A stretch of 64,000 nucleotides of DNA from contig CM000207.1 in assembly GCA_000002445.1 (NCBI GenBank), forward strand, positions 288,001 through 352,000, written 5' to 3'. Under the pieces are notes generated by a model. It made no database searches. It saw nothing but the letters and a program-made list of their open reading frames with translations, and was not told the DNA's origin. A program made the position numbers and the translations under genes. The DNA comes from Trypanosoma brucei (taxonomy: Eukaryota). This document shows positions 1 through 31,439 of the stretch, piece after piece; position 1 is the stretch's first letter; every line of letters starts with the position of its first letter.

Positions 1-399
1 GTTTCTACGCCATCTTCAGAAAAAAGGTATTGTACTAAAAAAGGAAAGGAAATACAGAGTGAATAATTTGTGTACTAAACACCACAGCACAGGGAAAACG
101 ATACGTGAGGCGGATGAGGAGGAGACTTTTTAACGTATTTACTAAAAAAGATATATGAAACACAGAAGATGGATGCGACTGTTGATTTAAATGTTATGCT
201 TAATCTTAATGCACATCTGTGAAGAGACAGTGGAAGAAATGTAAGTGAGAATTTGAGTAATTATGAAGTAATATTAAAGTTTTCTTCTTTCAGGTATTGT
301 AATAAGAGATAACATTTGTGGAAAACAATATAATATTTTCTGGCAGAGTATTTTTAAACTAGGTCTTATAATGCATCACTGTAGACATAAAAAAGTAAA

Positions 400-560
400 A
401 AAGTCGGATAATGATGATAATAAAGCATTCTTGTGTACAGTTAGTGGGACTTTGTGAGGTAGAAATTTTTGTGACGGTGCGCCCCCAATTCCATATTGGT
501 TTAAAGTTAATAAACTTAATGTATTCAAACAGCGTATAATTAATATAAGAGTTATCTTTC
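400..560. repeat. Degenerate 70-bp-repeat-like sequence upstream of the first VSG pseudogene
   Basis: TGA/TAA triplets (gataatgatgataataaag), a GT-rich block (ttgtgtacag...tttgtgagg) and an ...ataattaatataagag tail resemble the VSG-upstream 70-bp repeat seen more clearly at 13540-13878. The match is weak. Confidence 0.3.
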
Positions 561-805
561 GCGCGGCTCCAATGGCTCGCGTTGGAGACGCTCAGGCGGA
601 GACATTGCAATTGATAATTCCAAATTAGTGAGTCGCAAATGGCAGAATCCCAAAGCGGAGCAAGATGGCAACAAACAGGAATAAGACAGGAACAAAAGGT
701 CAATTACGTCCACTAGTAAACCACGCTACCTTTTTATTTTGAGTCAAACAGAAGCGCCAAAATCAACATGAGACAGACCCGTTAAAGTAAATAAATCTTA
801 TGCGT

Positions 806-811
<6 letters not shown>

Positions 812-838
<27 letters not shown>
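812..838. repeat. (AT)n dinucleotide microsatellite
   Basis: An uninterrupted atatat... run is visible directly in the sequence. Confidence 0.9.
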
Positions 839-841
<3 letters not shown>

Positions 842-1337
842 GAATGATGCATGTTATATTTAAAAATTGAGATTCTTTGCCATAATTTCGTGTTTGGTAC
901 AGACATAACAGAAACAGAAACTAAAAAAGCTGATCAACCTTTTATTCCAGCACCAGAAACCATCCATGTATATGCAAAACCAGTCTAATTAGAGCGAATG
1001 AAAAACAGAAAAAGAACCGGCGCACGCGTCAACCCATGAACAAACGCACACATACTCGATGTTGGACGCAAGATAACGGCGATCAGCACCATCTTGAGAG
1101 ATCAAACAGTTTTTAAACACTTCCCAACACTTGCCATCTAGAAGGACATTCAAGTTCCGAAAATGGGTAAAATATACTCCCGCTTGTGTTGCTACTGGTA
1201 TAATCACCCGTAAAAGCTCATGATTTATAGGAGCCTGTTCAAAAACAGTTTTTTCTGCTGCAAGGCACGCATAAGCCACAACCACGACTATATAAAACAA
1301 GATAGATAAAGAAAAAAGAATAAAGAATCACTCTTCA

Positions 1338-3118
1338 ATGAACTGTTTCAGCGTGATTCTGACAGAAGCAGCAATAATTTATACCGCGATAGCGTTCGCT
1401 AGAGGCCAACCAGACAACACCAACACTATAGGAAACACGGCAACTACATGGTGCGATGACTTGCACTACACTGAGGCGCTAATGAAAGACTTGAGAGACG
1501 AAGCAGAACAACGGCTAACGGTTCTGACGCACGACAACGATATGCTACAAGCCTGGACCATTTCTTTCTACAACGCAAAAGTGGAAACGGAAAAAAGGTG
1601 GTTCGCCTTTTTGCTTTCCTACGGCATGCCAGTTGCAGGAGACAACAGAAAAAACTACAACAACTTCAAATCGCAATCAACGAAGACAGTGTAACACGTA
1701 ACAGCGAAAGCGCATTACTTACGGCAGGCGGAAACGGTAGCGACACATGGGCAACCTGCGTTTGGCACGACAGCACAGACAAGCTGAAACTCAAACACCA
1801 ACCCACAATAATTTAGCTACGAAAGGTCTTAAATGACTTTATTTAGCAGAAGAATTTCTACTTTTACCGGCGTAATTGCGGCGCTGATCCTGATCTTTCA
1901 GGGAGCACAAGCTAGCACCGGAAACGAAGTGACCAAATAGAACACACCGTGCGACTCTGCTCATTACCTAATCAAACTCGCTGCGGAAGCTGACTCAAAA
2001 CTGCGGGACTTGTTGGAAAAAGCGGCAGAAGCACAGGATGAACAGCAAACAATTGATCTATACTCGGCGACAGCTGATGTGGGAGCAAACAGACCAGCCC
2101 TGGCCTGGCTGCTAGATAACGCATCACGCCGCGTGGCGACGTTAGCGAAGGAAGCTGTAACATGCAGGAAAGCAGTAGCAGAGCTCACAAGAACACTCCA
2201 CATCGAAGCGGGACGCAAATGGCTACTAGCAGATGCCACACAGATCAGCTCCAAAACGGGAACGGAAACAGCGATGTCAACAACAGCCAGCGGTGACTCG
2301 GTCGCAGCGCATCTCAAGCTCGACAAGCTAACTGACAAAACATGTGCCCAAGCATACTCAAAGCAAGCCGGCGACACCAAGAATGACCCAGTCGTTGTGG
2401 CCCTGGAGCAAATCAAAGTGCACAAGCTCGAAGGCAAAGACGCCGCCGAAACCACAAACAACGTCTGCAAAGTCTCATTTGACGGTGCCGAGTGCAGCAC
2501 CGACCCAAACAACATCAAAGTTTCAACGGCAACAACGGCACTTTTCAAAGCCACAGAACATACTCAAGTAACGGTCAAACCAGGCGGCAGCAAAAACGCG
2601 CGAGACGACAGTCCCCAAGGGCTAAAGAAAGAATTGGAAGAACACGCAAAAAATTTATAATACCGGCTCTACAACTTTCTAAAAAACAAACCATGCGACA
2701 CAGATATGGCCTCCATCCGTAACATGGAACTTGTACAAAACGATGAATGTTTTAGGAAAGCAGTTCTGATAGAGTTACAAGGCCTGAATCCAAATATGAT
2801 GCAGGCAATGATTCACAATCCAAAGCCACAACAAGCGGCATAAAAAGCATGTTCGGCGATAGTGAGACAGAATTCAATGCTAAGATATGGGAGAAGGTGA
2901 AGGCGAACACAGTAAAACAAAAAATAGTCGGAAAAGACATTGAAAGCAAAATCGAACAACTTTCTACCGACACCAACAGAGGACTAGTTCTAGCGTACTA
3001 TGCCTCTCAAAGGAAAAACAAGCCAACATGTGACACAGAGGCCTCCACACAAAAATCACAACAATGCGTAAGCCACAAAACACCAGAACACTGTCAAAAA
3101 GAAGGCTGTTATTTTGAT
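1338..3118 (+). pseudogene. Variant surface glycoprotein (VSG) pseudogene, frameshifted and 3'-truncated by an ingi insertion
   Basis: ORFs at 1338-1694 (hydrophobic signal-peptide-like N-terminus), 2010-2660 and 2849-3190 are collinear on the plus strand but lie in frames 0, 0 and 2, with a frame-2 ORF (1598-1816) in between. The last segment carries a Cys-rich VSG C-terminal-domain pattern (CDTEASTQKSQQCVSHKTPEHCQKEGCYFD). The coding sequence breaks at the ingi target-site duplication (3107-3118) and resumes after 8385. Confidence 0.75.
3107..3118. repeat. Target-site duplication of the ingi insertion, left copy (TGTTATTTTGAT)
   Basis: A 12-bp string identical to 8374-8385 immediately flanks the element termini. 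Confidence 0.85.
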
Positions 3119-3389
3119 TTTTTTTGGAATTTTCTTCGTGCCTTTGAGAGAGTTTCCCCCCACTGGCGCGGCCATCAGCTATCACCGTAGAGCCCTGAGA
3201 TGCTATCGGTCTGGCGACTGTGGCAGAGTCTCCCTTTTTTATTCATCCTAATACACTCTCTCTATAACGTTTTGTTGTAGCTCCGCAGTTGAACGGAATA
3301 CAGCAGATGGGGCGAGAAGCCCCCCACCCCGGACTCTCCAAAAGATGTCAATTAGCAATCCTTTTGTTTTGATTTTTGTTATTCGTTTA

Positions 3390-4501
3390 TTATTCTCTCC
3401 CCCTTTTTATGTTTTTGTTGCTTGTTGACTGCATACCCCCTCTGTCTCTGAGGGTGTCTGGACTATTCCTGCATCCGGTGCTTTTCCTGCTAGCTCCACA
3501 CTCGGCAATAAGGGGGGAAGTTGCAGAAGGGAGAGTGGGTTGTATGACTGTTACCTTAGGTGAGGACTTCACCTGCGGCCGGCTCCGTTCAACCGCAATG
3601 AGAAACTGCGCCAGCCTTTTGGAGAAGCATATATCCTGCACACACTCACCTTCCACCGCAAACCTGACACGTAACTCCTTCAAACCGGGACAGCTCATCG
3701 AGTGCAGCGACGTTTCTTCACAGTCGCCGCGTTGGCTGGTAACAGCGCGCTCTACCTTCATACCGTGCATCTTCTTTTGATGTAGGGTGAGGCCAGTTTT
3801 GCTAGCACACTGCCTTCCGCATGTCGGGCACACCAACATGGATGCATTTGTATGCGGGGAATCAGTGGCACAAAATTTTTTGCTTTTGCTGCATTTAAGC
3901 TCGACACCCTCACCTTTGTGGAAAGCCTTACAGTGTCGGATGAGGGAGTCCCTGCAACTGAGCACTTTTTGGCACACACCACACTGCACCTCGCCTTTCC
4001 CCTGGGGACGTTAACGTTTCCCTCACGGGCACGCTTACGAGGGAATTGCACCACCACCACGGTACCGTCCTCCGTCACTATGCTCTTATGTTTGAATTTC
4101 TTGTCTAGTGACAGGGAAGAGCGTGTACCGAAACTCGCCTCACACAGGTCACATTGAAACGGCAGCTTCCGTGTATCCTGAGGGGCTGGCGCTGCTGGGG
4201 CGCTACCATCTCCTTGCACTGAGTCCTCGTTCTCTCGCTCCCTTTTCACGCGGCAACTACCGCTGCCTATGCCATGTATTGTTCTAAGGTGGTGTAATAG
4301 TCGGCCTGGCACTGCGAATTTGGAGGCACAGAGGGTACAATGAAGAACCTGCGGTCTCATCGGGACTCGTGTGTTCGATGGTAGAGGAACGATCACCACC
4401 ACTGGAGGGGGCTCCGGGGGGATATCCACTGCAGGTGTTGCATCGCCGTATTTGATCCTCCGGAGGGCATCAGCTCGCACAAAGCCATGTTTGTTTACCA
4501 T
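3390..4501 (-). CDS. ingi ORF C-terminal fragments with C2H2 zinc fingers
   Basis: Zinc-finger patterns CTLCASKF...HHLRTIH, FQCDLCEASF...KFKH, CPTCGRQCASKTGLTLHQKKMHG and CGVCQKVLSCRDSLIRHCKAFH occur in two overlapping frames, 3758-4501 and 3390-3989. Confidence 0.7.
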
Positions 4502-4756
4502 GCGCGTTACAGCACTCGAGCGGCATTGGTATATGGCATCACATTCCGTACATTTGGTCGGTTCGGAGGTTCTCTGAAGAGTGCGTGTCGCAACAGTTGG
4601 GACCGTTTGTATTGTTTGCCCTATCTCTGCATGTTGCGGGTTGCACCATCGGCACTGTGGGAGCGCACTCGGGTTGATCTTTCACAACATCCATCCATAG
4701 TGCCTTGAAGACCCAACCCGAAAGCGTGCCAGTGCCGTTTCTTCTTCCATCGTTAA

Positions 4757-6886
4757 TTATTCCTTATGTTTTGTTGTAAAGTGGTTGCCCGTGATACCAA
4801 ACCTATGAGTGTTCTCATGGACTTCTTCCGACCTAAGCACTCGCTTCGCATAAGCAATGATGTCGGGGATCCATGTGTCTCGCAACTGTGGTAAATCAGC
4901 GGCCTTTTTGGCCATTTCATCACAAACCTCATTCCGTTTCACGCCACAATGGCCAAACACAAATTGCAGTCGGATACGTATCTTCCTTCTCTGAACTTGA
5001 AGCAGAAGCCTCCATAGTCGTCTCAGAATTGGGTCCGTTACGGCTAGGGGGCCTGTCTGCAGTGCTGTTAACATTGACAGCGAGTCAGAGAAGATGGACA
5101 ACCTGCTCTGTGTGCTTCTGTATGCCGGAAGCCATTTCAGCAGCCGTTGCAGTCCTATCTCTAATGCTACGCATTCCGCTCTGTAACTGCATGAGAGTTC
5201 CTCTGCTCCGGTCTTGGGTGCACAAATCAGCGTGTTGTTTCTATAGAGCAGGGCAGCTGCTCCGGACTTCTCACCGAGGGACACGGATCCATCAGTCCAC
5301 AATTCGTAGTGCTCTCGCCGCGGTGGCTCCTTCCCCCTCCGTGCAAAATGCCGTGCAATCCACTTTTCGGAAGCCTCCCTTTTGACATCATCAGGGTCAT
5401 CAGCGCATACGGGCTTTATCTGCGTGTGAAATAGCGGTCGGCAGCTGTGGCGGAGCGTCGATGTCTCTAGTGGGTGCTCGCGTGGCTCAATGTGGAGGTG
5501 GGGATAGGACCACATGATGCGGGATTGTAGGGCTCTGACCGTATGTTTACTGTGGTATACTTCCTCAGCACTGCGGCGCAAACATCCGCCTCGTGACTCA
5601 CACATCAGCATGAATTTCATGCTGCGCACAAGAGTGGCCGTCTTGAGTAGCAGGAGGTTTGCTTCCAGCACAGAGTTCTCTTTGCGCGTCCCATGCGGTA
5701 TGCCGGCTATGATGCGACTGGCTTTGTGTTGTGCTGATGCAAGGAGGTCGCGACTTCGTTCCGAAGCGTCCCAGTACCATACCTCAATACCATACATGGT
5801 GTGTGCCTGTACGAGTGCTAGATAAAAAGCTCTCAGTACTTGTTGTCTTGGCCCCCATGTAGAAGCTGAGATGGCTACTATCTGCAGTAGTCTGAAGTCC
5901 ATCTTGCGTCTCGTTTCGGTCGCATGTGTTGCCATCCCCTGCAGACACTGGAATGTTACTCCTAGAAGCTTCGGTGTCCTGTCAGCTCCTATTCTTTCGC
6001 CGTCCAGTTGTAATGTAAGGGGGTGGCGCTCTGTACACCCGAAGAGTGTGCACTTTGTTTTCGCTACGTTGACAGACATGAAGTACTCTTTTGACCACTG
6101 TAACACCACGTTTAGGCCGCATTACAGCGTGTGGTTGATGACATCCCTCTCTGTGTGCCTCGCAAGTAGCGTTAGGTCGTCTGCAAAGAATCCGTGCTGC
6201 AGTAACGGCACTTCTGCAAGGCGTTGGCTCAACGAGTTCATGACAATAATGAACATGATTGGGCCAAGGACAGTTCCTTGTGGCACTCCTCGCTCAAATG
6301 TTCTGCTTCTGGAAAGCTTCTCCTTGAATCTCACTCTGCCAGTTCGGTTACTCAGAAATGATACGCACCACTTCACAATGTGGGGTGATACCTTCATTCT
6401 GTGCATTTCCCTCGCAATTTTGTCGTGGTCTACTGTATAAAATGTCTTCTCGTAGTCAACGAATACAGCACCCGTACGATATTGGTGCGTGGGACGGCAG
6501 AGGGCAGCACGGACGTGCAGGAGTTGTTCGAGCGTTGAGCATCCGGGGCGAAAGCCTGATTGCTGCGGCGTCAGCTGGGACTCAACAGTGTCTCTAAGCC
6601 TCGCGGCAATTATGCGCTCCATGACTTTGCAGAGACAGCTCGTGAGCGTCACAGCTCTGTAAGAATCGAGGTCCTCCGCCTTTTTTCCGGCCTTCAGGAT
6701 GGGGATGATAACACCAGTCTTCCATGCAGGCGGCACGACTCCCGTTCGTAGGCTCTTATTGAATAGCTTCAGCAAAACATTCAGCGCTGTTCTACCGAGA
6801 TGTTGCAGTGCCTCGTTGTATAAGCAATCAGGTCCGGCTGCGGATCCACTCGGTAGCAGTTTGATCGATCTCCTTAGTTCAGCCAT
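4757..6886 (-). CDS. ingi ORF fragments: reverse transcriptase (6122-6886 and 4757-6109) plus RNase H
   Basis: RT motifs include LCKVMERIIAARL, QSGFRPGCST, VFVDYEKTF and FADDLTLL (the YxDD-box variant). The RNase H-like stretch is WTDGSV...SYRAECVALEIGL...FSDSLSML. The region is split into two ORFs by a frameshift. Confidence 0.8.
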
Positions 6887-6967
6887 CGTGATGGGACTGA
6901 ACTCACTCGCTATCGTCTTTACTGGTGCTGGTGGGTGTGAGTCGGGGTGCCTTCTTGCGCGGGACGA

Positions 6968-8365
6968 TTACAGCTTACTGAACTTCTCAGCTTGACGGCA
7001 GTCCGTGATGGTCGCGTTATCGACAAGTACAGCCGGTGTGGTTAGTGGTCGTGGCGCATATACTTTCTTGACAATGTGCCAACTGCAGCGGTCTGACACC
7101 GCAAGTCTGGAGCATAGCGTGCTCCATCTCTTCTTTGTGGTACGGTCCAGGATCTGCTTACGCGTGGCTACCAACTTTTCCCTTCGGTGGGAGGGTCCGC
7201 ATCCAGCGATCTCTTCATCGAGTTTCGCGAGCTCAGGTGTCCAATGTGGTGGCGTTGCTCTGCAGCCACGGGGGACGGAGACCTTCGTCGCAACGCGGAT
7301 TTCGGAGCTCAATTTCTGTTCCAGGGTGTTGACATTCTTCTCTCTACCAATTTTCCTACAGAGGTCGTCAACCTTGAGACGGAAATTCCTCCAGTCAGCT
7401 TTCAGCCATACGTACATGGGCTTTCGAGGCCGCGGGCAACTCAGTGCATCTGTGCCGTCTCCAACGATAACGTCAAAAAATATGTGATGGTGATCGCTAT
7501 CGGGAGAATACAGCGATGTCCACGTGTACACTGTGCAATTCCTTGACAGTGTCACATCAGGGGTGGACTCCCCGTGGTGGCGCGCGTACCTGGTGCACTC
7601 ACCAGTGTTGCAGACCAGAAACTGGTTGTCAATGCACCACTGTGTGAGGGTTTCACCCTTGGTATTTGGTGGGCTCGCGCGATCCCATGCCAACGCGTGT
7701 GCGTTAGCGTCTGCACCGATGAGCTGGGCACCGTCAGTCATCAGAAGCGTATCTAGGTCAGTTGCCGTGAAGGTGTGTTTTGGTGGGATGTATGCCGACG
7801 TGACAGTCAGCGCCGTTTCACTTGCAAGGTGAATTGTTGCATGCACTTGTTCAATGCGACTAACAACGGTCATACCGCTCTCGACTGGTAGGTCCTCCCT
7901 CACTAGTATTGATACACCACCTCCTTTGCAGTTACGAGCTATTCCGTGATGTTGGTAGCCAGCAACGCTAAAGCAAACCGCCTCTCCAGGCGTCATCCTT
8001 GTCTCGCTCAACGGACAAAAGGCGATCCGCTCATCAACAAGGGTTTTGTGGAGTGCTAATCTCTTTCCTTGAGATAGCCCGGCGCAGTTCCACTGTATCC
8101 CGCGCAACGACGGGCCGGGATTCTCTTCCACATCACCGGACAGCAACATCTTAGTGCGGATGATACTGCTGATGACACACTGGCACGTGCCCAGGGACCG
8201 ACAAATGAAGAACGGTGTCCCAGCAAGACGCTGCTGATCCCTGTGCTGTATGATGCCGTAGCCGGAGCACAGCAGTGTTCCCCATGAAAGGAACGCTTCT
8301 GACTCTTGGCTTACCCCGATGATACGGGGTACTGGACCCTGGCACCACGTTGAGGTGGCCGGCAT
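6968..8365 (-). CDS. ingi ORF fragment: N-terminal 2A-like motif plus apurinic/apyrimidinic-type endonuclease domain
   Basis: The ATG sits inside the element terminus (LAMPATSTWCQGP). DVEENPGP lies at 8111-8134. Endonuclease-like motifs present include IQWNCAGL, VSILVRED and LTVTSAYIPP. The ORF then breaks by frameshift. Confidence 0.8.
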   Translation of the reverse strand: MPATSTWCQGPVPRIIGVSQESEAFLSWGTLLCSGYGIIQHRDQQRLAGTPFFICRSLGTCQCVISSIIRTKMLLSGDVEENPGPSLRGIQWNCAGLSQGKRLALHKTLVDERIAFCPLSETRMTPGEAVCFSVAGYQHHGIARNCKGGGVSILVREDLPVESGMTVVSRIEQVHATIHLASETALTVTSAYIPPKHTFTATDLDTLLMTDGAQLIGADANAHALAWDRASPPNTKGETLTQWCIDNQFLVCNTGECTRYARHHGESTPDVTLSRNCTVYTWTSLYSPDSDHHHIFFDVIVGDGTDALSCPRPRKPMYVWLKADWRNFRLKVDDLCRKIGREKNVNTLEQKLSSEIRVATKVSVPRGCRATPPHWTPELAKLDEEIAGCGPSHRREKLVATRKQILDRTTKKRWSTLCSRLAVSDRCSWHIVKKVYAPRPLTTPAVLVDNATITDCRQAEKFSKL

Positions 8366-8373
8366 CGCCAGGG

Positions 8374-8385
8374 TGTTATTTTGAT
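8374..8385. repeat. Target-site duplication of the ingi insertion, right copy (TGTTATTTTGAT)
   Basis: Identical to 3107-3118. Confidence 0.85.
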
Positions 8386-8774
8386 GAAAACAAAACGCCA
8401 AAATGTTTTCCAAAAGAGAGCAAAGAAGACAAGAAAAATGGGCATAATGGGAAAACGTAAACTAAAAACACCACAGGAAACACTTCTTTTGTCATTCATA
8501 TGACCCCTCTTTTGCTTGCGCTTTTGATTCTATAATTTAAATTCTAAATTATTTTTTCCAATTTTCTCAAATTTTATATTTTGAGAGAATTGCTATATTT
8601 GTGATATTTTAAAGTTGTTGATGAAAATGTGCAAATTCGTTTAATTTTTTTAAAAATGCGACATGTGTGCATGATAGCTATCTATCGGTGTAAAGTACTA
8701 TGGTGACAGGTTATGGAAAATTAGTGCTTTTCTACTTTGTTTATATAGTTTATTTTATGGATATTAGTCAGGAT

Positions 8775-8850: not shown

Positions 8851-10346
8851 CCTTAGTAAACGACCAAAAAGTGACTAAACTAATAACAATGAGAATATTT
8901 GAGAGTACTGGACAGTGATTAATGAGTAGAAAAAAAATATTATAAAGGAAAAACAGAAAGACAAAGAGGTGTAAAAATAGAGATGGCATAAGCGTATTTT
9001 TAAACGAAAACATGACGATGTGTATTATTATGGTATAACTGAAATACGAAACAGTGGAGCAGCTAATGAAAGACGAATAATTCGTTAAATATGTGTTTTT
9101 AAGTTAATCCAGTCATCTGAGAGAGACAATCGAGAAGCATGCAATTGCACAAAAACCTTGCAAAACAAAAACAACACCAAATTTGCAAAATGTGGAAGGA
9201 AACATATGAATGCGGCTAAACACCAAAATAAAAGCGCTTTTGTATAAAAAAAATGCAACAGCAGTGAGATTTAATGGTGACCAGGTAAAGGAAAATTGAA
9301 AAAGTTATTAGACAGAATAAAGCTTTTCATTGTTTCCTAGACTGACAGAATGTGAAGATGCGAAAATTCAGCTCAAATTGAAAATTTAGTGTGTTATAAA
9401 AGACATAGCTTAAAGCATGAAAATTGCTTTTATGTTAAAAGATAAAAACCGCTAGTAAATACTCACTTCAAATAAACACTTCGTCCCCTTAAACATTTTT
9501 GTACAGTTAAGCCTAGAAGACAGCAAAAAGGACGACAATGAAATTGGGCTTACACAAGCAGAAAGATTGCACGTGAACAACAATCGCCGTATTGAAACAG
9601 TTTTACGTACTACCACAAAAACAATTCAGTAACAAAACATCACGGAAACAATCTGGACACCAGCGAACCAGCAATATACGAGGCAAAGTTAAAACCCAAA
9701 CTTACGATGGTGTCTGGGACAATTCACGAACTCGCTAAGAACCAAAAGCAAACAACTCTAAAACCGAAGAGGAGAGTCGTTTTTACACATAAATAGGTAA
9801 TATCTGCAGCGGCAATTAGTAGTTGAGCTTTGCACAGAGACATAATGCGAACATACTGTTGAGTAGAAATAACCATGGGTTCAACCAAAGCATCAGAGAA
9901 CCTGTATGCGCTATTTTCAAGCGGAAGGTATCGTCCAATTTAAATTTAGCAGCAAACAGAAGCATCGGGTGACTACAGCGGGCAGACTCATAGCTATTAC
10001 AAGTCTGTAAATGTTATAACCCACTTTGAGCCCTCTTTTGTGTGACATAATACTATAAGAGAGCAAAGGTTCAATTCAACCTCAATACAACTGTGTAAGC
10101 AGACATCAACAGTAGGTTCACAGACTCTGAACAAAGCACCACCGTGAACGTAGATGGCAACGATCCTCGCCATATATATTCTCTTCTTTGCACAAATAAC
10201 CTCTCTCAGTTTTCAATACCACCGATGCTACCATACCAAAAAATACTATCGAAATACATTTGCTAACGCTAATACAACATGAAAAGCAACCCTACTTACT
10301 ATTCCAGATCCAACTGAGCCAGCTAAGGGAAGCTAGAAGTGAGAAA

Positions 10347-13539: not shown

Positions 13540-13698
13540 ATAATAATATAAGTGATATTGATAGCGGAGTGTTGTGAGTGTGTATATACTAATATTATAA
13601 TAAGAGCAGTAATAATAATAATAATGATACTAATAATAGAAGAGTGTTGTGAGTGTGTATATACGAATATTATAATAAGAGCAGTAAAAATAATAATA

Positions 13699-13729
<31 letters not shown>

Positions 13730-13878
13730 TAATAATAGGAGAGTGTTGTGAGTGTGTGTATATGCGAATATTATAATAAGAGCAGTAAAAATAATAATAA
13801 TAATGATAATAATAATAATAGAAGAGTGTTGTGAGTGTGTGTATATGCGAATATTATAATGAGAGTGCTGCGGTCACA
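13540..13878. repeat. VSG-upstream 70-bp repeat array, about 4.5 imperfect units
   Basis: The array repeats (TAA/TGA)n, then GAGTGTTGTGAGTGTGTGTATATRCGAATATTATAATAAGAGCAG. (TAA)n runs reach 10 units. Confidence 0.85.
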
Positions 13879-17569: not shown

Positions 17570-17586
17570 CTTATATATTTTAACAC
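17570..17586 (+). promoter_or_regulatory. VSG 3'UTR 16-mer-like element, variant CTTATATATTTTAACAC
   Basis: It lies downstream of the VSG stop codon and is preceded by ttgctacttgaaaac. Confidence 0.5.
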
Positions 17587-17714: not shown

Positions 17715-17866
17715 GGTAGGTAGGAGGGGGGGGTAGTTAGGTTAGTTAGGGGGGTTAGGTAGGATTAGGATTAGGATTAGGGTTAGGGTTATGGTTACTC
17801 GGTTAGGGTTAGGGTTAGGGTTAGGGTTAGGATTAGGGTTACTCGGTTAGGGTTAATTTTTCTTTT
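17715..17866 (+). repeat. Interstitial telomere repeat tract (TTAGGG)n, G-strand on the plus strand
   Basis: The tract reads ggtaggtaggagggggggggtagttaggttagttagggggg, then (ttaggg)n with variants ttagga and ttatgg and a ttactcgg spacer. Confidence 0.85.
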
Positions 17867-20177: not shown

Positions 20178-20340
20178 AATGGTAATGATGATAGAAGAGT
20201 TGTGTAAGTGTGTATATACTAATACTATAATAACAGCAGTAATAATAATAATAATAATAATATTAATATTAATAATAATAATAATAAAGGAATTTGTGGT
20301 GAGTGTGGACATACTAATATTATTATACGAGTTGTGATGA
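20178..20340. repeat. 70-bp repeat array, about 2 units
   Basis: The array reads gatgatagaagagttgtgtaagtgtgtatatactaatactataataacagcag, then a (TAA)n run, then ggaatttgtggtgagtgtggacatactaatattattatacgag. Confidence 0.8.
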
Positions 20341-21223: not shown

Positions 21224-22852
21224 GTGCGAATGATGTTCGGCAAAGCAACTGGAGAAAAGATTGAGCTGGCGAGCACATCGGCGGCGATAACCCTCCTTAT
21301 TTGCATGTTGGGTACCCCTAGCGAGGTGGATGCAACTGCAGGGCACGCTATCAAGAGACAGCATTGGGTTGCTATTTTTGAACTAGGGCAGGATGCAGAA
21401 AAGATACCAGCTTTAGCACTGACAAACCTGAGGAGCGCTGCAAGCGTGGCCGAAGATGCATTCACGAAGCTACTAAGAGCGCTAATTTACGCGCAAGCTA
21501 ACCTCACTAGAAGAACCCTACCAAAGGAAAAGGCAGCATGGTTTTTTTTGGGAGAAGAGGTCGCCGCTGGTCTAGCTTACTTCAAGGGCGGCAAAGCAGC
21601 AGCTGACATAACAGCCGCCCGTAACGCCGGTAGGCTGCAGGGCGCCATCACAGAATTCATTGAGCTCCACGCAGAGGGCTCAGACGGAACTAACGGCTGT
21701 CTCAGCGCAGATGACGACGGGGGCAACCCGATCAGCGGCAAGGCAACTTTCTCAGGCGCAACAACGGCATGCAAAGCAAACTGGGATGACGTAAAAGCAG
21801 CATCAACAAGGCCAACAGTTATCGCCGCCAACGGACTCGTAGGAAAACTGCAAAACGGAGTCGACCACGACAATCTAGTAAACGGAGCGAAACAGTGCGA
21901 TATAAACTCAGCGAAAACGACCTTCAAGCTGTCTGACGGGGCAAGCGACGGAACTAACGTGGGCACGCACATACCGAAAATGGCGGCAGGCATAATAACA
22001 GTGGGCACCACGGGACTCGAGATACCAAGCATGGCAAGCGTGGGACCGACGACTGGGCACCACGACTTCTTGAAATCAATAGTACAAGCAGCAAAGTGCG
22101 ACCAACACAGACTGCAAAAAGCAGCAGTGGACACCCTGGCAGAGGCGCAGAAGGAACCGAGGTTCAAAAAGGCAACAAAAATACACCTCCAAAACAAGAA
22201 ATCCGACGACCCCGATGATGAAGACTCCAGAGAGCGTGCGATAAAGACGGCATACGGCGACGACGACGGCATGCGGAAGGTGCTTTACGCCCACCCAGAT
22301 GGCCAACCAATCCCCAAAGCAGCACTAGGCACCGACGCCGACACAACATTAGGCCAAATCACGGACGTTGGTGAACTGATGCGTTTGTACTTTTACTATT
22401 CGGACTTGAACAAGCAGAAACTACTAGAAGCTGAGAAAAAACTTCAAGAAGTAGAAACCAAGACGGCTACAAAATCAGCAGAAGACAAAGAGAAAGAATG
22501 CAATACCAAAGGGAAAGACAAAAAGGAAGAGTGTGAAAAACTAGCGAAAGAGGGGTGCGTTTTTAACACAGAAGCCAAAAAGTGTGAGTTGAAAAAAGAA
22601 GTGAAACCTGAGCTAGAAAAAGCAAACCAGGAAACAGGAAAGACAACAACAGATAAGTGTGGCATAGAAAAACCTCCTGAGGACTGCGAAAAAGTGCAAG
22701 GTACGAAACCCAAAGGAAAAAATGTCGTTTGTGGTTGGATTGATTATATTGATGGAAAGGGCAAAGTTGAGCCAGCTTGCCGCTCTTCTAGTTTTCTAGT
22801 CGACAAGAAACTTGCTCTTATTTCTGCTGCATTTGTGAGCTTGCTTTTTTGA
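21224..22852 (+). CDS. VSG, apparently intact (542 aa) with signal peptide, N-terminal domain, Cys-rich C-terminal domain and GPI signal
   Basis: This is one uninterrupted ORF. The N-terminus carries a hydrophobic stretch (AAITLLICMLGTPSEVDA). The C-terminus reads ...KECNTKGKDKKEECEKLAKEGCVFNTEAKKCELKK...CGIEKPPEDCEKVQG...VVCGWIDYIDGKGKVEPACRSSSFLVDKKLALISAAFVSLLF. A 70-bp repeat array lies about 0.9 kb upstream and the exact 16-mer lies 90 bp downstream. Confidence 0.85.
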   Translation: MRMMFGKATGEKIELASTSAAITLLICMLGTPSEVDATAGHAIKRQHWVAIFELGQDAEKIPALALTNLRSAASVAEDAFTKLLRALIYAQANLTRRTLPKEKAAWFFLGEEVAAGLAYFKGGKAAADITAARNAGRLQGAITEFIELHAEGSDGTNGCLSADDDGGNPISGKATFSGATTACKANWDDVKAASTRPTVIAANGLVGKLQNGVDHDNLVNGAKQCDINSAKTTFKLSDGASDGTNVGTHIPKMAAGIITVGTTGLEIPSMASVGPTTGHHDFLKSIVQAAKCDQHRLQKAAVDTLAEAQKEPRFKKATKIHLQNKKSDDPDDEDSRERAIKTAYGDDDGMRKVLYAHPDGQPIPKAALGTDADTTLGQITDVGELMRLYFYYSDLNKQKLLEAEKKLQEVETKTATKSAEDKEKECNTKGKDKKEECEKLAKEGCVFNTEAKKCELKKEVKPELEKANQETGKTTTDKCGIEKPPEDCEKVQGTKPKGKNVVCGWIDYIDGKGKVEPACRSSSFLVDKKLALISAAFVSLLF

Positions 22853-23746: not shown

Positions 23747-26700
23747 CCCTTGTGACGGCGGTCACCTCATCGTGGTGCAAGGGTCTAGTACTCCGTCCAG
23801 GAGGAAGTCAAGTGCCCGCATTACTCCCGGTCAAACAGGTTGGGACGGGAAATGGGCTTTCGGCGACCAGAGAAGGAGCAATCAGCAGTATCGGCATTCT
23901 GGGATGAAGAAATATATTAAACTTCTCTTCTGCACGTGCGAGCGTGCTTCAATTGGAATGCATAGACTTCTACTGCTTCTTAGCGGGGATGTGAAACAGA
24001 ATCCGAGTCCTGTCATTTGTGGAGCCCAGTGGAACTCTGGGTCGTTACCTCAGGTAAAACGATTTGCCTTGGAAAGGCAACCTCAAAAGGACCACGTACT
24101 ATTCTGTCTGTTGCAGGAGACTCACTTGGCTCCAGCGGAATGTACTGCGCTTAATATAAGATGATTCCAGTATGTGGAATTGGCGAAAAAACCGCACAGG
24201 GGTCGGGTTTCAATTTTAGTAAGAGATAGGGTGGAAGTGGAAATGGGACAGATGGAAAAAGGAGTCCTAGAAAGAGTGTCAGTGACGCTGCGATTTTCAG
24301 CTGATGTAAAATTGACAGTCACTTCAGCTTATTTTCATAGAAAATCGAGGGTTTCCAACACAGCGTCGGAACAATTAGCGGTAGAAAGCGGTCCTCTTGT
24401 AGTAGGGGCTGATGTCAACTCGCATCATGACTTGTGGAACATAATGCAGCATAGTGACGACAAAGGGGAATGTATTGTGTATTGGTGTATCGAAAACGAT
24501 ATGAAGATAGGAAACACCAGAAAAGAAACCCGTCATCAGTCAGGAGGGAACGGCTGTATTGCCTTAAAAAGACATCACCATGTGCGGAGAATGTGAGGTA
24601 GTAGATTGGACAACCACACTGGTTTCTGAAGGTGACCGTTTTGAATCACTTTTGATGATGTGGTGAATGGTGGTACAGAGGCAATTGCACTATTAAAACC
24701 TGCCAGGGTTTTATGCGCGTGAAAAAAAGCGCGTTGGATTTACTTCAGAAAGGTGAGTGATAAGTTCATTTTCAACAAGACTAAGGAAAAAATAAAGGAT
24801 GCGGATGCGTTAAATGAAGCCATCAGGAGAAACATAAGACAGGCAGCCAAGAAAACAATACCAAAGGGTAAGGGTGTAGCGCCGCCTTTCTGGACGTAGG
24901 AGCTGACGAAGCTGGACAAAATGGTTCAGAAGTGCAAGAGCGAACGGAAAAGGGACACCCTGATTCGCTGGAGGAGAAAAGCGCTGGCTGAAATGGCGCT
25001 GGGTCAGTGGAAGGAGAACGTGTCGAAGCTGGCGACCACGGATTCAGCGAACTAGAACTTTGTGAAGTCGATATATACACTGCGGCCGTTGACGTAACCA
25101 GTGGTGGTGGTGGACGGCCATCCGTTGATAAAGCGCAAGCAAGCACAAGCACTGTCCAACATGTACAAGACCAGGTCAACGAAGGCACCACATTTTCCAG
25201 AAATGAAAAGACCCAGCACCAGGTGGAGCGCGGTCCGACCGATCACCTTGGCATAGCTGGAAGTTGCGCTGCGTGAGCTGTCTTCTGGCACGGAACATGG
25301 CGATGATGCGATCGAAAGCGATGATATGAAGCAGATAGGATGAGTAGCCAAAAAGTATGTGCTGCGACTATTTAACTGAAGTCTGCGCACGGGGAGGGTA
25401 CAAGCCAAGTGGAGGCACGGCATCATAGTCCCGCTGCTGAAGCCGAACAATCCAGCTAGCAGTATCGCGTCCTTTCGGCCGGCCACTCTCATGAGCACGC
25501 TGTGCAAGGTGATGGAGCGCATCGTGGCACGTCGTGTTAGGAACTGTATTGAAGACGATCGGCAGCCACAGCAGGCAGGCTTCAGGCCGGCGCGGTCGAC
25601 GCTGGACACGCTCATGCAGGTGATAAGCACAATGCGGCGGAGGAAGGACGGTGAGAAGACCGCAACTGTGTTCATTGACTACGCGCGTGCTTTTGATTCG
25701 GTTGATCACGGCTGCATGGTCGAGGTGCTAGGGTTATTTGGAGTTAAGAAGCATCTGGTGGCGTGGATCGCGGGCTTCCTGCAGTGTCGCACGGCGCAGG
25801 TGAGGGTGAAAAATGCGCTTTCGGAGAATACACAACTCACCTGCGGCGTCCATCAGGGCTCGGTGTAAGGTCTACTGCTGTTCATCGTAACGGTGGATTC
25901 GCTGAGCAAGTGGCTGAACTGCATCCCTGGGTTGCAGCGCGTTTTTTTCGCGGACGACCTCACAATAGTATGCGCGAGCTCTGACCTGAATGCAATCCAG
26001 CGAACCGTCAAACAAGGGCTGGATTGCGTCACGAATTGGTCGGCAGAGTGCTACATGGAGGTGTCGGCGGAGAAGACTGAGTACACGCTGTTCAGGGCGC
26101 GGGACAAGAACCCACTGGGCCTGAGGATTGGAGAGACTGTGTTGAAGGAAGTACGAACACCGAAGCTGCTTGTTCCGACGATGCCACAGCCCTGAGCAAG
26201 CATGCAAGGAGTGTGAAGGCAGCGGCCGACACGCGGCTCTTGCCGCTCAGGGCTGTGGCATCGTCGGAATGGGGCCCAGAAAGGAAGAAACTGCGAACCT
26301 TCTAGCTGGCGCTGGTCCAGGATAAGATCTTTTACGGCATTGCTTCTTGGTGGTTCGATGCCTCGCTGTCGGACCGTGAGAGGCTGGAGAGGGTGCATGG
26401 ACAGGTGGCGCACATAGTGGAGTGTATTCCCAAGGCAGCCAATCGGGAGGATGCCATGCGAGAAGCTCGGCTGAAGTCTATAAACGATGTGGCGTACCGG
26501 AGAGCCTTGGAATACTATCAACGCATGAAAGCCAATGGCCAGACGTATGCACAGCTTGCGAACAGCATATTCACAGCTGAGAATCCAGTCCATGTCAGGC
26601 TTGCGACGGCACAGCGGCTGCACAGCACCATTGATGGCCCGGGCAAGCGACACGATGCGACGGTGTTGCGGCTGGCCAAGCGCGTCCACTTCAACAACAC

Positions 26701-29190
26701 CGAGCTAGGCGACATTAAAGTGGACGCGCCGGAGAAGGACAAGAAGGTGAATACCATGCGGTGGGTACAGCGGTCCAAGGACTATGACAACCAGGTGTGG
26801 ACAGAAGGGTCCGTGGTGCTGGACGTTTCGTCAGACGCAGGTACCCTTGTGCACCCAAAGGAGGGGAAGAGGGAGAAGGTTGTGCTGGGAGCTGGGCCGC
26901 CGGCCTGCAGCTATCGCGCGGAATGTGTGGCGATGGAGGCGGGGTTGAAGAGGCTAGCTGATTTCATGGAGCTAAAAAAGACGCACAGAACGAGAGTTGT
27001 GGCCTTCACGGACTCACTGTCGCTGTTGATGGCGCTGAGTACTGGCTGCGGTGGTGGAGAACGCGATTCTGAGACGTATTTGGGACCTCATCTTGCGTAT
27101 TGTGCGGTTTCGTGTATCCATCCACTTCCAGTTCGTGTTTTCGAATTGCGTGGTGCTACGCAATGACGCAGCTAACAAGGCAGCCGAGAAGGGAAACACA
27201 AAGCTGCAGTCGTATCCAGCATGGATCACGGACGCAGTCACAGGTATAGAAAGGCAAATCCGTTGCGAAAGGAACAATGAATTCAAGGAGGGAAAAACAT
27301 CACAAGGACACCGCAGTGTTCTCCTCAACTATATTAAACCTACGCAGAAAAAACAAAATGGACAAAATAGGGGAATAACTACAAGTGCAATTTAGAACAG
27401 ACACCTCGAAACATTTCGGATGGCTACATCGTGTGCTCAAAAAAACAATGGAGAACACTAAGTGTACGTTGTGTCGTTGTGAATTAGCGAAGTAGGAGAG
27501 AAGTGATAAGATGAAAAAGATAAGTACACAAAATGATAATACGAAGACGCAGTCATCACAGGTGGACGTGCGACATAATGAGCCCATAATATGCCCGTTG
27601 TGCAACGTGGTGTGTGCTCGTCGTCAAGCTGGAGTAGTGCGCCTGATGAATATACACAGTTGGAAAAGAGAAATGGCACTGGAAATGACAAGGATTGCAA
27701 AATTGGCAGTACAGGAGTATAAATGTAAATACAGCTGCCATGTTTGTGAAATGGATTTTGAGAGGTGAGGTTTACTAGTGGAGCACATGGTCACACACAA
27801 ACACGCACGCCCCGGAAATAATATCGCAGGTTGAAAATCAACAGAAAAGGAGCATAAAAGAAGAGGTAGATTCGGAAAGACAAAAGCTAACGTGTCGATG
27901 GTGCCACATTGAATATGTGTCGTATGGATGGTTAAAAAGGCATATGCTAACAAAAAATCCTGAATAGCAGCAAACAGAATACGACAAAAATTAGAATCAA
28001 CAGGCAGAGCATGGCACGGAGGATACGGATATTAATGAGGAGAAACTGGAGTGTCAAAGGTGTAAAATGGTGGTAAAGAGTAAAACTTGGTTGAACAGAC
28101 GCGAATGCATTCGAAATCAGGCAATACTACAGGAGACTTCAAAGAGACAGAAAATCAACTTAAAGAAATATGCTGCACATGTGGAAAGGAGTACCAATAC
28201 AGCTGGTTGCTTCGTCATATGCATAAGAAGAACCCAGGATACGATGAGTCTTTGAGGCCAAGGATGTGAGTGCAGAATAGAAAAGTCAAGAAGGAAACGA
28301 AAAGGGAAGTTAGCGATAACAGGAAAGCAGTGCAGGGTGCAGGGGCAACAATTGATGGGAAAAACCGGGAAAAAGGCCAATAATAGGGAGGCACACAGAA
28401 GTAGAAGAAGGAAGAGATTTTGTGTGTTAGGTAAAATAGTGCATACAAGTCACAATACTCACTGTTATGGCACACACAAACACACTATAAGGGCGCTACA
28501 AATGTTCAAAGAAAGATGAAAGATGACTCGCTAATAATAACTCCTACAATGCAAAGATTACTTCAGCGCCCATACTGCCCAATGAGATGCACACAGAAGC
28601 AGCGCCTCACAATGTATCTACTGGCGAGGCACGGACAGCCGAAGAAGGAAGCCGCGCACAACTTTCTGATGGTCTCATGTGAGGAGTCATCTGTGCGTCT
28701 GCTGGTGCGACAGAAACTTCTGCCAACAAGGAAAAACACGGTGTGGAACACCTTGAAAAAGAGGAAATACATAAAAGTGAACAGATACCAGGATTCCTAA
28801 AAGATCTCTTGAAGGTAAAGGGCCGCGATGAACCCAATCTATACACTCACAAAGAGAAACCCACTCGGGAAGTGAAAATGGGAAGATCGCCAGAAAAGTT
28901 GGATATCCCATCCCACCCTGCGCAGCCTTTGGTAATACAGACAGTCTCTCATATGGAGGGGAGAAAACGCCCTAGCAAAATGTTTCCCCCGTACAGGCAA
29001 AGAGGGGTACAGTTTCGATGGAAGAAGCGAGGACTGAATCGGGGCTATATAAACATCTTCCAAAGATGTGCAGAGAATAGGAAGTAGCAGATAAAATGGG
29101 GAAGCACATGCACATTAAATGCACAACGAAAAATGCACATATTCCATTTCTATTTCTCTCCCCCCGTCTCACTGAGCTATCTTTTAAAAA
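23747..29190 (+). mobile_element. Degenerate ingi-related retroelement (DIRE-like) on the plus strand; the 3' boundary is approximate
   Basis: The 5' end CCCTTGTGACGGCGGTCACCTCATCGTGGTGCAAGGGTC aligns with the ingi 5' terminus. The domain order matches ingi but the ORF is shattered: a decayed 2A motif (GDVKQNPSP), an endonuclease (24174-24596), RT (25491-26195, FADDLTIV), RNase H (26393-27395, WTEGSV...SYRAECVAMEAGL...FTDSLSLL) and C2H2 fingers (27511-28269). The 3' end is placed at the A-run near 29185. No convincing TSD was seen. Confidence 0.6.
23772..28269 (+). pseudogene. Shattered endonuclease/RT/RNase H/zinc-finger ORF of the degenerate ingi-related element
   Basis: Many short plus-strand ORFs in all three frames are each homologous to successive parts of the ingi ORF at 3390-8365 (minus strand). 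Confidence 0.6.
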
Positions 29191-29858: not shown

Positions 29859-31439
29859 TTATGCTAGGAGCAAAAATGCCATGAACAGAGGAATACTCAT
29901 CAAAGCAGAAATGCCAACTGCACCGTCACAAACTCCATCCTCCCATGTGCAGTCTTCTTTACAGTCTTCCTGCTGTATTGCTTTGCAATTTCCTTCTTGT
30001 CGTGCCATCATCCACTGAAGTGCTCTGGGCCATTTCCGCATTTGAGTTTCGTTCTGTTTCTTTGTGTCTTTCCTTTCGTCTGATTCGCATCTACCTTTTT
30101 CCTCGTTGCCTTCCCATGTGCATTCGCCACTGCAGTCCTGTTTCCCCTTACCACTGCAGCCCGTTTTGGTGATTTCAGTTTCGTCTGATTGTGCTTGCTT
30201 TGCCTCTTCTGTTGGTCTTTGATCTTCCAGATAAATTAGAGCCTTCTGTGCGTTTTTGTTTCTAACCGCATCAAGGAGTGTTTCAGTTACGAATCCTGAG
30301 CCAATGTGGTACGTCACGTTCTTAGTCCACAGAACTTTTACGAAGTCTCTGGTGAAGTTTTGCTTATCCCCCCCGTAAAGTTTTTGAAGTTGCGCTTCGA
30401 CGCTGCTTCCGGCCGAGGATTTACCTCTTGTTTCGTGAAAGAAGCTTTTGAACGCGAGTTGGACTTCGGTCGTGTTTGCTAACGTGACAGGCGTTAGACT
30501 GGATATGGTTATTATCTGAGGATCGGGTTCTTTTATGTATTTGCATAACTTGTTTATCAGTAAGTCGTTATCTTTTTCTGATTTCGTCGATTCATTTTGT
30601 ATCACAGCGCAATTTGTGCTCGAGTCGCTACCCTCGAATATCCTAATCGGCTCTACAGTGATGAGGCTGTCTTTTTCAGTCGTCGATGCCTCGAATTTAA
30701 CATAATGGTCACCTTTCAGCAGATGTCCACACCTCTCAACTAATGCTTCTGCGCTTTCCGGTCCCTTCGTTTTTTTAATCTCAACCAGATGCGTTATTCC
30801 CAGTGGTCTTAGTTTGCTGCTATTTAGCAGTTTGATATGCGTTGCTGTCTTCAAGTTAACGGAAATTCCTTCTGGTTGGCTGTTATCATTGGTTCGGTGT
30901 GCACAACTTCCGTCGCCGCGTAATATCGGTGTTTCATCGCCAGGGCATTCTCCTATGGATACGCTGTAGCCCTGTATTTTGCTTACTCCAACTATTGTCT
31001 TCCCCCGAATATTAATCGCCAGCAACGTGCGCGTTAGTGCCGCTCTCCTGTGCAGAAACTTTGCGGTTGCTACCGCTGCCTTGTACTTCCCATTGTGGAC
31101 CCGCCTTGCTGTCGCCGCTGCGGTGGACATGTACGCGGCAAGGGCATACGTCGCGGCCCGTTTCTCTGTTTGGTTTGTAACTGCGGCAAGAAGATCCCAT
31201 GCCTCTGCATAAATTTGCATGTCGGATATTTCGCGCTCCTGCCTTTCTGCCGCCGCTACGATGCGATTTGCGAGGTACTCCGTATACTTAGCCTCTGTGC
31301 AGAGATTTGTCACCTTGTCAGAAGATGGCTCTGTTACTGCTTGCGCCTGGCAACACCTCGACAATAACATGAGTAGCGCGGGCACACCTGCTGCAACAGC
31401 TGTGTGCGATATTACTTTGGTAGCGGTCTGATTTTGCAT
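29859..31439 (-). CDS. VSG-like GPI-anchored surface glycoprotein gene (526 aa), intact, on the strand opposite to the VSG array
   Basis: This is a long uninterrupted ORF. The N-terminus carries a hydrophobic segment (AAGVPALLMLLSRCC). The C-terminus is Cys-rich (CSGKGKQDCSGECTWEG...CKEDCTWEDGVCDG) and ends in a hydrophobic tail (ISALMSIPLFMAFLLLA) with no cytoplasmic domain. I did not find a canonical 16-mer in its 3'UTR, so it may be an atypical or VSG-related gene. Confidence 0.6.
   Translation of the reverse strand: MQNQTATKVISHTAVAAGVPALLMLLSRCCQAQAVTEPSSDKVTNLCTEAKYTEYLANRIVAAAERQEREISDMQIYAEAWDLLAAVTNQTEKRAATYALAAYMSTAAATARRVHNGKYKAAVATAKFLHRRAALTRTLLAINIRGKTIVGVSKIQGYSVSIGECPGDETPILRGDGSCAHRTNDNSQPEGISVNLKTATHIKLLNSSKLRPLGITHLVEIKKTKGPESAEALVERCGHLLKGDHYVKFEASTTEKDSLITVEPIRIFEGSDSSTNCAVIQNESTKSEKDNDLLINKLCKYIKEPDPQIITISSLTPVTLANTTEVQLAFKSFFHETRGKSSAGSSVEAQLQKLYGGDKQNFTRDFVKVLWTKNVTYHIGSGFVTETLLDAVRNKNAQKALIYLEDQRPTEEAKQAQSDETEITKTGCSGKGKQDCSGECTWEGNEEKGRCESDERKDTKKQNETQMRKWPRALQWMMARQEGNCKAIQQEDCKEDCTWEDGVCDGAVGISALMSIPLFMAFLLLA

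Follow-up and report, generated by a model that had tools for sequence, protein, structure and literature searches.

The window analysed here is a stretch of 64,000 nucleotides (nt) of Trypanosoma brucei DNA (GCA_000002445.1, contig CM000207.1, positions 288,001 to 352,000 of the forward strand), which belongs to chromosome 9 of T. b. brucei TREU927, five of its proteins being identical to EAN76254, EAN76257, EAN76264 and EAN76270. It includes a plus-strand array of variant surface glycoprotein (VSG) genes that extends to about 23 kb and minus-strand housekeeping genes that begin at about 38 kb; the two are separated by an atypical VSG and a degenerate element related to ingi. Within the array, a plus-strand VSG pseudogene is interrupted in the sequence encoding its C-terminal domain by a full-length Tbingi, a non-LTR (non-long terminal repeat) retrotransposon of 5255 bp carried by the minus strand (3119–8373). 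This arrangement, with a perfect 12-bp target-site duplication (TSD), had been proposed by a sequence-only reading of the same DNA and is borne out by the repeat, by the termini of the element and by its virtual excision; it holds in each of the checks which that reading suggested.

The two copies of the TSD, TGTTATTTTGAT, are located at 3107–3118 on the 3' side of the element, where the sequence corresponds to the VSG codons C-Y-F-D, and at 8374–8385 on its 5' side. The repeat is exact, cannot be extended on either side and has no other mismatch-free occurrence in the window; the probability that 12 bases agree by chance at both flanks of the element is ~7e-8. Duplications in the ingi clade have a conserved size of 12 bp (PMC3820030). 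On the minus strand, the element begins with CCCTGGCGATGCCGGCCACC (in a longer reading, CCCTGGCGATGCCGGCCACCTCAACGTGGTGCCAGGG) and ends with GAAGAAAATTCC followed by a poly(A) tail of seven adenines (3119–3125), or eight if the first A of the TSD is included. Its junctions with the VSG read GGCTGTTATTTTGATTTTTTTTGGAA and GCCAGGGTGTTATTTTGATGAAAAC. An independent ingi of T. equiperdum (CM010675.1; L001:4513-9765), which has unrelated flanks and is the sole other locus compared, aligns with nt 1–5255 of the element from end to end (95.2% identity over 5261 alignment columns), with 243 evenly distributed mismatches and seven small indels, and with one difference in the first 40 nt. Both ends of the two copies agree to the base, including the poly(A) at the 3' end. 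Since the ends coincide with those of an independent copy, the limits given in the sequence-only reading (an ingi/RIME terminus at the minus-strand 5' end and a short poly(A) at the 3' end) are the true termini of the family. The T. equiperdum copy adjoins a B-type VSG, its open reading frame (ORF) carries other lesions than those of the element studied here and its own duplication is degenerate (TTTTCCAGTGCA and TTTTACTGTGTC, 8/12, at L001:4501-4512 and 9775-9786).

The interrupted gene is a pseudogene of a VSG with an A-type N-terminal domain. Its 5' part, which corresponds to codons 1–429, is located at 1833–3118 (+), and its 3' part, which encodes the rest of the C-terminal domain and the glycosylphosphatidylinositol (GPI) anchor signal, at 8386–8535 (+). 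Pfam detected Trypan_glycop in the 5' part (26.7 bits) and failed to recognise most of the translated N-terminal domain; homology was therefore established through a VSG paralogue instead. When the translated flanks are stitched together, their only significant relatives are T. brucei VSGs, the best of them being A0A1V0G0A9 (476 aa), a T. brucei protein that carries PF00913. In tblastn searches with this paralogue, residues 1–317 match 1833–2783, residues 318–429 match 2783–3118 in another frame, and residues 425–471 match 8371–8508, the four-residue overlap being the duplicated C-Y-F-D. Over residues 1–471, identity amounts to 56% in the N-terminal part and 79% in the C-terminal part. A signal peptide, C-terminal-domain cysteines and a hydrophobic GPI signal can still be recognised. 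The gene nevertheless carries three in-frame stop codons (1938–1940, 2658–2660 and 8458–8460) and a frameshift around 2783.

Virtual excision (removal of 3119–8385) restores a contiguous C-terminal domain: residues 318–471 of the paralogue align over 154 residues with 79% identity and with no gap at the junction, where the window reads CQKEGCYFDENKTPKCFPKESK and the paralogue CQKEGCDFDENKTPKCFPKESK. The test by which the sequence-only reading could have been refuted is thereby passed. The T. brucei paralogue itself runs through the junction without interruption (CQKEGCDFDENKTPKCF). The plus-strand flank ends at 3118 with ...CQKEGCYFD, exactly as previously read, and the VSG frame, split after codon 429, resumes in phase at 8386 (ENKTPKCFPKESK...). 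It then continues for 50 codons through the GPI signal (...SFVIHMTPLLLALLIL) to the natural stop codon at 8533–8535. The target can thus be reconstructed as ...GGCTGTTATTTTGAT followed by GAAAACAAAACG..., and the empty site would read ...GAAGGCTGTTATTTTGATGAAAACAAAACG....

Some details of the sequence-only reading have to be corrected. It placed the resumption of a sequence resembling a VSG 3' untranslated region (UTR) at 8386, where coding sequence continues; a degenerate 3'UTR (TTGCTA...GTGATATTTTAAAG, 8536–8640, +) is only found from about 8536. Downstream of 8535, no match with up to three mismatches was found for the VSG 3'UTR 16-mer TGATATATTTTAACAC, the degenerate GTGATATTTTAAAG being the only counterpart. 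It also made the interrupted cassette start at 1338. The 3118 and 8386 borders of the insertion hold, but the gene itself only comprises 1833–3118 and 8386–8535, as 1338–1805 (+) corresponds to another VSG. This fragment covers the first ~156 codons of a gene whose product shares 63% identity with VSG 1125.1167; it contains internal stop codons, and 27 bp separate its end from the start codon of the VSG interrupted by the ingi. It appears to be fused head-to-tail to a full-length VSG pseudogene, probably as a relic of recombination.

The family assignment of the element does not depend on its ends alone. Its closest protein match is annotated as a reverse transcriptase of Trypanosoma brucei equiperdum (93% identity), and the ingi relatives of T. 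vivax (Tvingi) and T. congolense (Tcoingi) share only 39–41% protein identity with it. Element nt 1–77 (8297–8373, −) constitute the Pr77 hallmark, as indicated by their similarity to the L1Tc Pr77 oligonucleotide (73.8% over 79 nt, with 36 of the first 40 nt identical; PMC1874656), to be compared with the 76.6% given for ingi/RIME in the same publication. The ingi/RIME terminus named in the sequence-only reading is therefore supported by both the independent copy and this published hallmark. No match to the 5' terminal 20-mer was found in the full texts of papers searched. Pr77 has been published as an internal promoter and as a ribozyme resembling that of hepatitis delta virus (HDV), the ribozyme role being described in PMC4035085. 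At gathering thresholds, Rfam gave no match in the window; below threshold, an HDV-like ribozyme was matched over the whole model, starting from element nt +1 (18.1 bits, E=0.13), and the fold z-score of the region is −2.2. This match is consistent with the published role of Pr77.

The 2A-like ribosome-skipping motif GDVEENPGP (8111–8137, −), encoded 77 codons past the ATG at element nt 9, agrees with the signature -GD(V/I)ExNPGP- and with its place in the ORFs of the ingi clade (PMC3708506). Along the minus strand, it is followed by an APE-type endonuclease (7481–8098; Exo_endo_phos_2, 1.3e-12; Exo_endo_phos, 4.8e-4), a reverse transcriptase (6146–6679; RVT_1, 4.3e-36), an RNase H (4898–5311; RNase_H, 1.5e-10) and a C2H2 zinc finger (3765–3833; zf-C2H2_4, 1.9e-5, below the curated cutoff), the latter being located 3' of a frameshift.

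Lesions of the element were mapped by reference to the T. equiperdum copy, in which the corresponding frame remains open. Once repaired, the ORF starts with the ATG at element nt 9, comprises 1657 codons and ends with the canonical TAA at nt 4982 (3392–3390). It is disrupted by four nonsense codons, namely TAA at nt 1404 (6970–6968; TAC in the T. equiperdum copy), TAA at nt 2250 (6124–6122; CAA), TAA at nt 3615 (4759–4757; GAA) and TGA at nt 3690 (4684–4682; CGA), and by a 2-nt insertion that shifts the frame near nt 4370 (4004–4003), all on the minus strand. This copy cannot encode its own machinery, and "full-length" is true of its length only. Both partners are now dead, the VSG by three stops and a frameshift and the ingi by four nonsense codons and a frameshift, and the locus is a typical piece of the decaying subtelomeric VSG archive.

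The sequence preference of ingi and RIME upstream of the insertion point was derived from 83 unique 5' flanks listed in supplement 1 of PMC4660242. In this list, the plus-strand rows carry the first base of the element (43/44 end in C), and the resulting one-base offset was corrected; some rows are also repeated in chunk-local coordinates and RIMEs are labelled "Complete INGI". The derived consensus comprises T-14, G-13, S-12 (G/C), G-10, T-9, G-7, G-6 and T-4, and the duplication tends to begin with T or A, so that it can be written TGCTGTTGGATTGA/T..., the slash marking the insertion point. The pattern survives the removal of RHS-type flanks. In the orientation of the element, the site studied here reads ...TTTTGGCGTTTTGTTTTC/ATCAAAATAACA and agrees with five of the eight consensus positions, its score of 2.5 bits ranking in the top 2.5% of window positions. 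It would be an acceptable target rather than a preferred one; 74 other antisense positions in this VSG score equal or higher. A T-rich upstream target was also considered, as 12 of the 18 upstream positions are T in this case (a composition found in 1.4% of 18-mers, and confined to the VSG antisense strand). It was ruled out, none of the catalogued flanks having at least 12 T at −18 to −1 (mean 5.8), and was dropped because the real signal of the catalogue is G/T-patterned.

Taken together, the data indicate that a silent array VSG almost certainly received the Tbingi through target-primed reverse transcription, within the sequence that encodes its C-terminal domain and in the antisense orientation. 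The junctions show the 3' end of plus-strand T3118 linked to the cDNA, with a stagger of 12 nt. From this geometry and from the standard model of target-primed reverse transcription for the clade (PMC3820030; PMC4035085), the following scheme can be deduced. The ingi endonuclease would nick the plus strand between T3118 and the G that is now at 8386 (5'-TGTTATTTTGAT/GAAAAC-3'). The 3'-OH freed in this way would prime reverse transcription on the short poly(A) of the ingi RNA. The opposite strand would then be nicked at a distance of 12 nt, which would generate the 12-bp duplication.

Several points weigh against this explanation. The target fits the consensus only modestly, at the 29th percentile of the catalogued sites: G is favoured at −10 and −7 and T at −14, and none of these bases is present. 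The reconstruction of the empty site is based on a paralogue. Moreover, neither the order in which the VSG died and received the insertion nor the state of the ingi when it inserted can be recovered from the sequence.

This last point leaves room for a different history of the element. The copy may have been dead on arrival, that is, already coding-defective in its source RNA and mobilised in trans by the proteins of an intact ingi, as RIME is; the insertion would then be recent and the perfect repeat meaningful. The presence of five disabling lesions in the ORF alongside a perfect repeat favours such a history, and trans-mobilisation of non-autonomous partners is part of the accepted model for the clade (PMC3820030). 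However, all four stops are sense codons in the T. equiperdum copy, so there is no sign that the lesions were inherited, and the divergence between the two copies is evenly distributed along the element. The repeat itself argues little for recency. The sequence-only reading regarded the insertion as cleanly datable, but a 12-bp repeat, even a perfect one, makes a very weak clock: the lack of any change in the 24 nt of the TSD only bounds change at less than ~12.5% per site. Were all four nonsense codons to postdate the insertion, they would imply a change of about 2.4% per site, and a repeat exposed to such decay would still be perfect with a probability of 0.56. A recent insertion of a dead copy and an older insertion decayed in place cannot be distinguished from the sequence, and we consider an arrival in the dead state possible but somewhat doubtful. 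In favour of such an arrival, Bringaud et al. are said to have found, in 2004, that few ingi copies are intact and that many nevertheless retain their 12-bp repeats.

It is far less probable that no insertion took place at this locus and that segmental duplication or gene conversion, as is common in VSG arrays, brought in an ancestral VSG cassette which already bore the ingi. VSG arrays do evolve by duplication, and the fragment of another VSG that directly adjoins the interrupted gene attests to local rearrangement. Nevertheless, the 5' flank is found for this locus alone in the TREU927 catalogue (where the element is listed twice, the second time in chunk-local coordinates), and blastn detects no second ingi or RIME copy in the window. 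Even if a cassette had been copied, this would change only the place of the insertion, not the event or its anatomy. As for a coincidental repeat with boundaries lying elsewhere, such as at a point where ingi copies had recombined, nothing was found to support it beyond the degenerate duplication in T. equiperdum, which shows that some ingi copies lose their repeats, and it is refuted by the negligible odds of an exact chance repeat, by termini shared to the base with an independent copy and by a VSG reading frame that excision restores exactly.

Integration by target-primed reverse transcription at this very site thus remains the favoured explanation, and neither the element nor its location is exceptional. 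Supplement 1 of PMC4660242 lists the element, together with 100 nt of its 5' flank, as a "Complete INGI" (NC_007282:291118-296373, minus strand; positions 1–5254 of Repbase INGI); it is an already known, catalogued and ordinary component of the TREU927 reference genome. When the 90 unique catalogued 5' flanks were compared by blastx with eight VSG proteins only, seven of them, including this one, were found to read as VSG C-terminal coding sequence as far as the insertion; besides this copy, at least six catalogued TREU927 ingi/RIME elements therefore abut such sequences. An ingi in a VSG C-terminal domain is thus unexceptional in this genome. The contrast that the sequence-only reading drew with the usual RHS targets of ingi does not amount to a real distinction, as the literature also links ingi with VSG regions: it is described as inserted in them (PMC4660242) and as typically accompanying VSGs and ESAGs in subtelomeres and being polymorphic between subspecies (PMC2854126). 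Five of the seven insertions are in the sense orientation, and two, the one studied here and the complete ingi at NC_007282:241094, are antisense. An antisense preference had been envisaged, since weight-matrix matches are 3.6–7.6 times commoner on VSG antisense strands, and is not supported by these orientations.

Two of the sense insertions sit at V-C-x-W-I-D codons, whose DNA, GTTTGCTGTTGGATTGA, is a perfect match to the consensus. A tentative and rather unlikely extension is that the VSG C-terminal domain constitutes a recurrent secondary hot spot for ingi and RIME because these codons spell the G/T-rich target consensus. The insertion described here would then be a lower-affinity antisense example and may have been trans-mobilised as an already dead full-length copy. 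If such a hot spot were real, retrotransposition would systematically add to VSG pseudogenisation and spread 5-kb blocks of homology through the archive. Taken alone, the present insertion carries little weight, being one of ~100 ingi copies in the reference genome and lying in the expected subtelomeric VSG context. It provides a clean textbook case, since its junctions are exact and a paralogue allows the empty site to be reconstructed, and could serve as a presence/absence marker in strain comparisons. The derived target consensus and the VSG C-terminal insertions might merit a genome-wide follow-up.

The rest of the window contains other features of VSG arrays. The 3'UTR 16-mer TGATATATTTTAACAC is found on the plus strand downstream of five other VSGs (11932, 13321, 17571, 20008 and 22942). 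Only one of these five cassettes, 21230–22852 (EAN76254), is intact; those ending at ~13.3 kb and ~20.0 kb have no long ORF and are probably pseudogenes. Repeats of the 70-bp type are located at 13610–13865 and a (TAA)n tract at 20240–20287. About 17 degenerate TTAGGG telomere repeats lie inside the array (17730–17855, +), ~150 bp past the 3'UTR of a B-type VSG pseudogene (15.9–17.5 kb) whose 16-mer is located at 17571–17586. This arrangement is that of a telomeric VSG and suggests that a chromosome end has been fossilised here or that a telomeric cassette was copied. Beyond the array, a degenerate ingi-related element (DIRE; 23856–27681, +; GC content of 55–57%) retains APE, reverse transcriptase and RNase H regions that share 24–36% identity with the ingi protein in several frames. 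It is separated from the housekeeping genes by an intact gene annotated as "VSG, atypical" (29859–31439, −), which is identical to EAN76257 and, on the strand opposite to that of the array, marks the boundary between the array and these genes.

Among known systems, the element corresponds to the autonomous Tbingi of the ingi4 subclade (ingi/L1Tc clade), with which it shares its length, termini, Pr77, 2A motif, domain order, poly(A) and 12-bp TSD. Unlike autonomous Tbingi, it is not competent for retrotransposition by itself, owing to four nonsense codons and a 2-nt frameshift, and its target matches the upstream consensus of the family less well than the median. L1Tc of T. cruzi belongs to the same clade and has the same architecture, 77-nt 5' hallmark, 2A motif and 12-bp duplication, but differs by its species and subclade and by the upstream target signature reported for it (PMC3820030); its nucleotide similarity to ingi is low beyond Pr77 (PMC1874656). 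RIMEs inserted in RHS pseudogenes, the classic ingi/RIME "hot spot", rely on the same retrotransposition machinery and generate the same 12-bp duplication, and RHS-type flanks are present in the catalogue. They are 0.5-kb elements in an RHS host gene, whereas a 5.25-kb form of the autonomous type interrupts a VSG here. Parallels are also found in the same genome. The complete antisense ingi NC_007282:241094-246342 belongs to the same family and also targets a VSG C-terminal domain, in another VSG and at another position. The sense insertions at C-x-W-I-D codons (NT_165288:113874 and NT_165288:37564) have the same kind of target, again in other VSGs and at other positions, and their site at GTTTGCTGTTGGATTGA fits the target consensus far better than the one described here.

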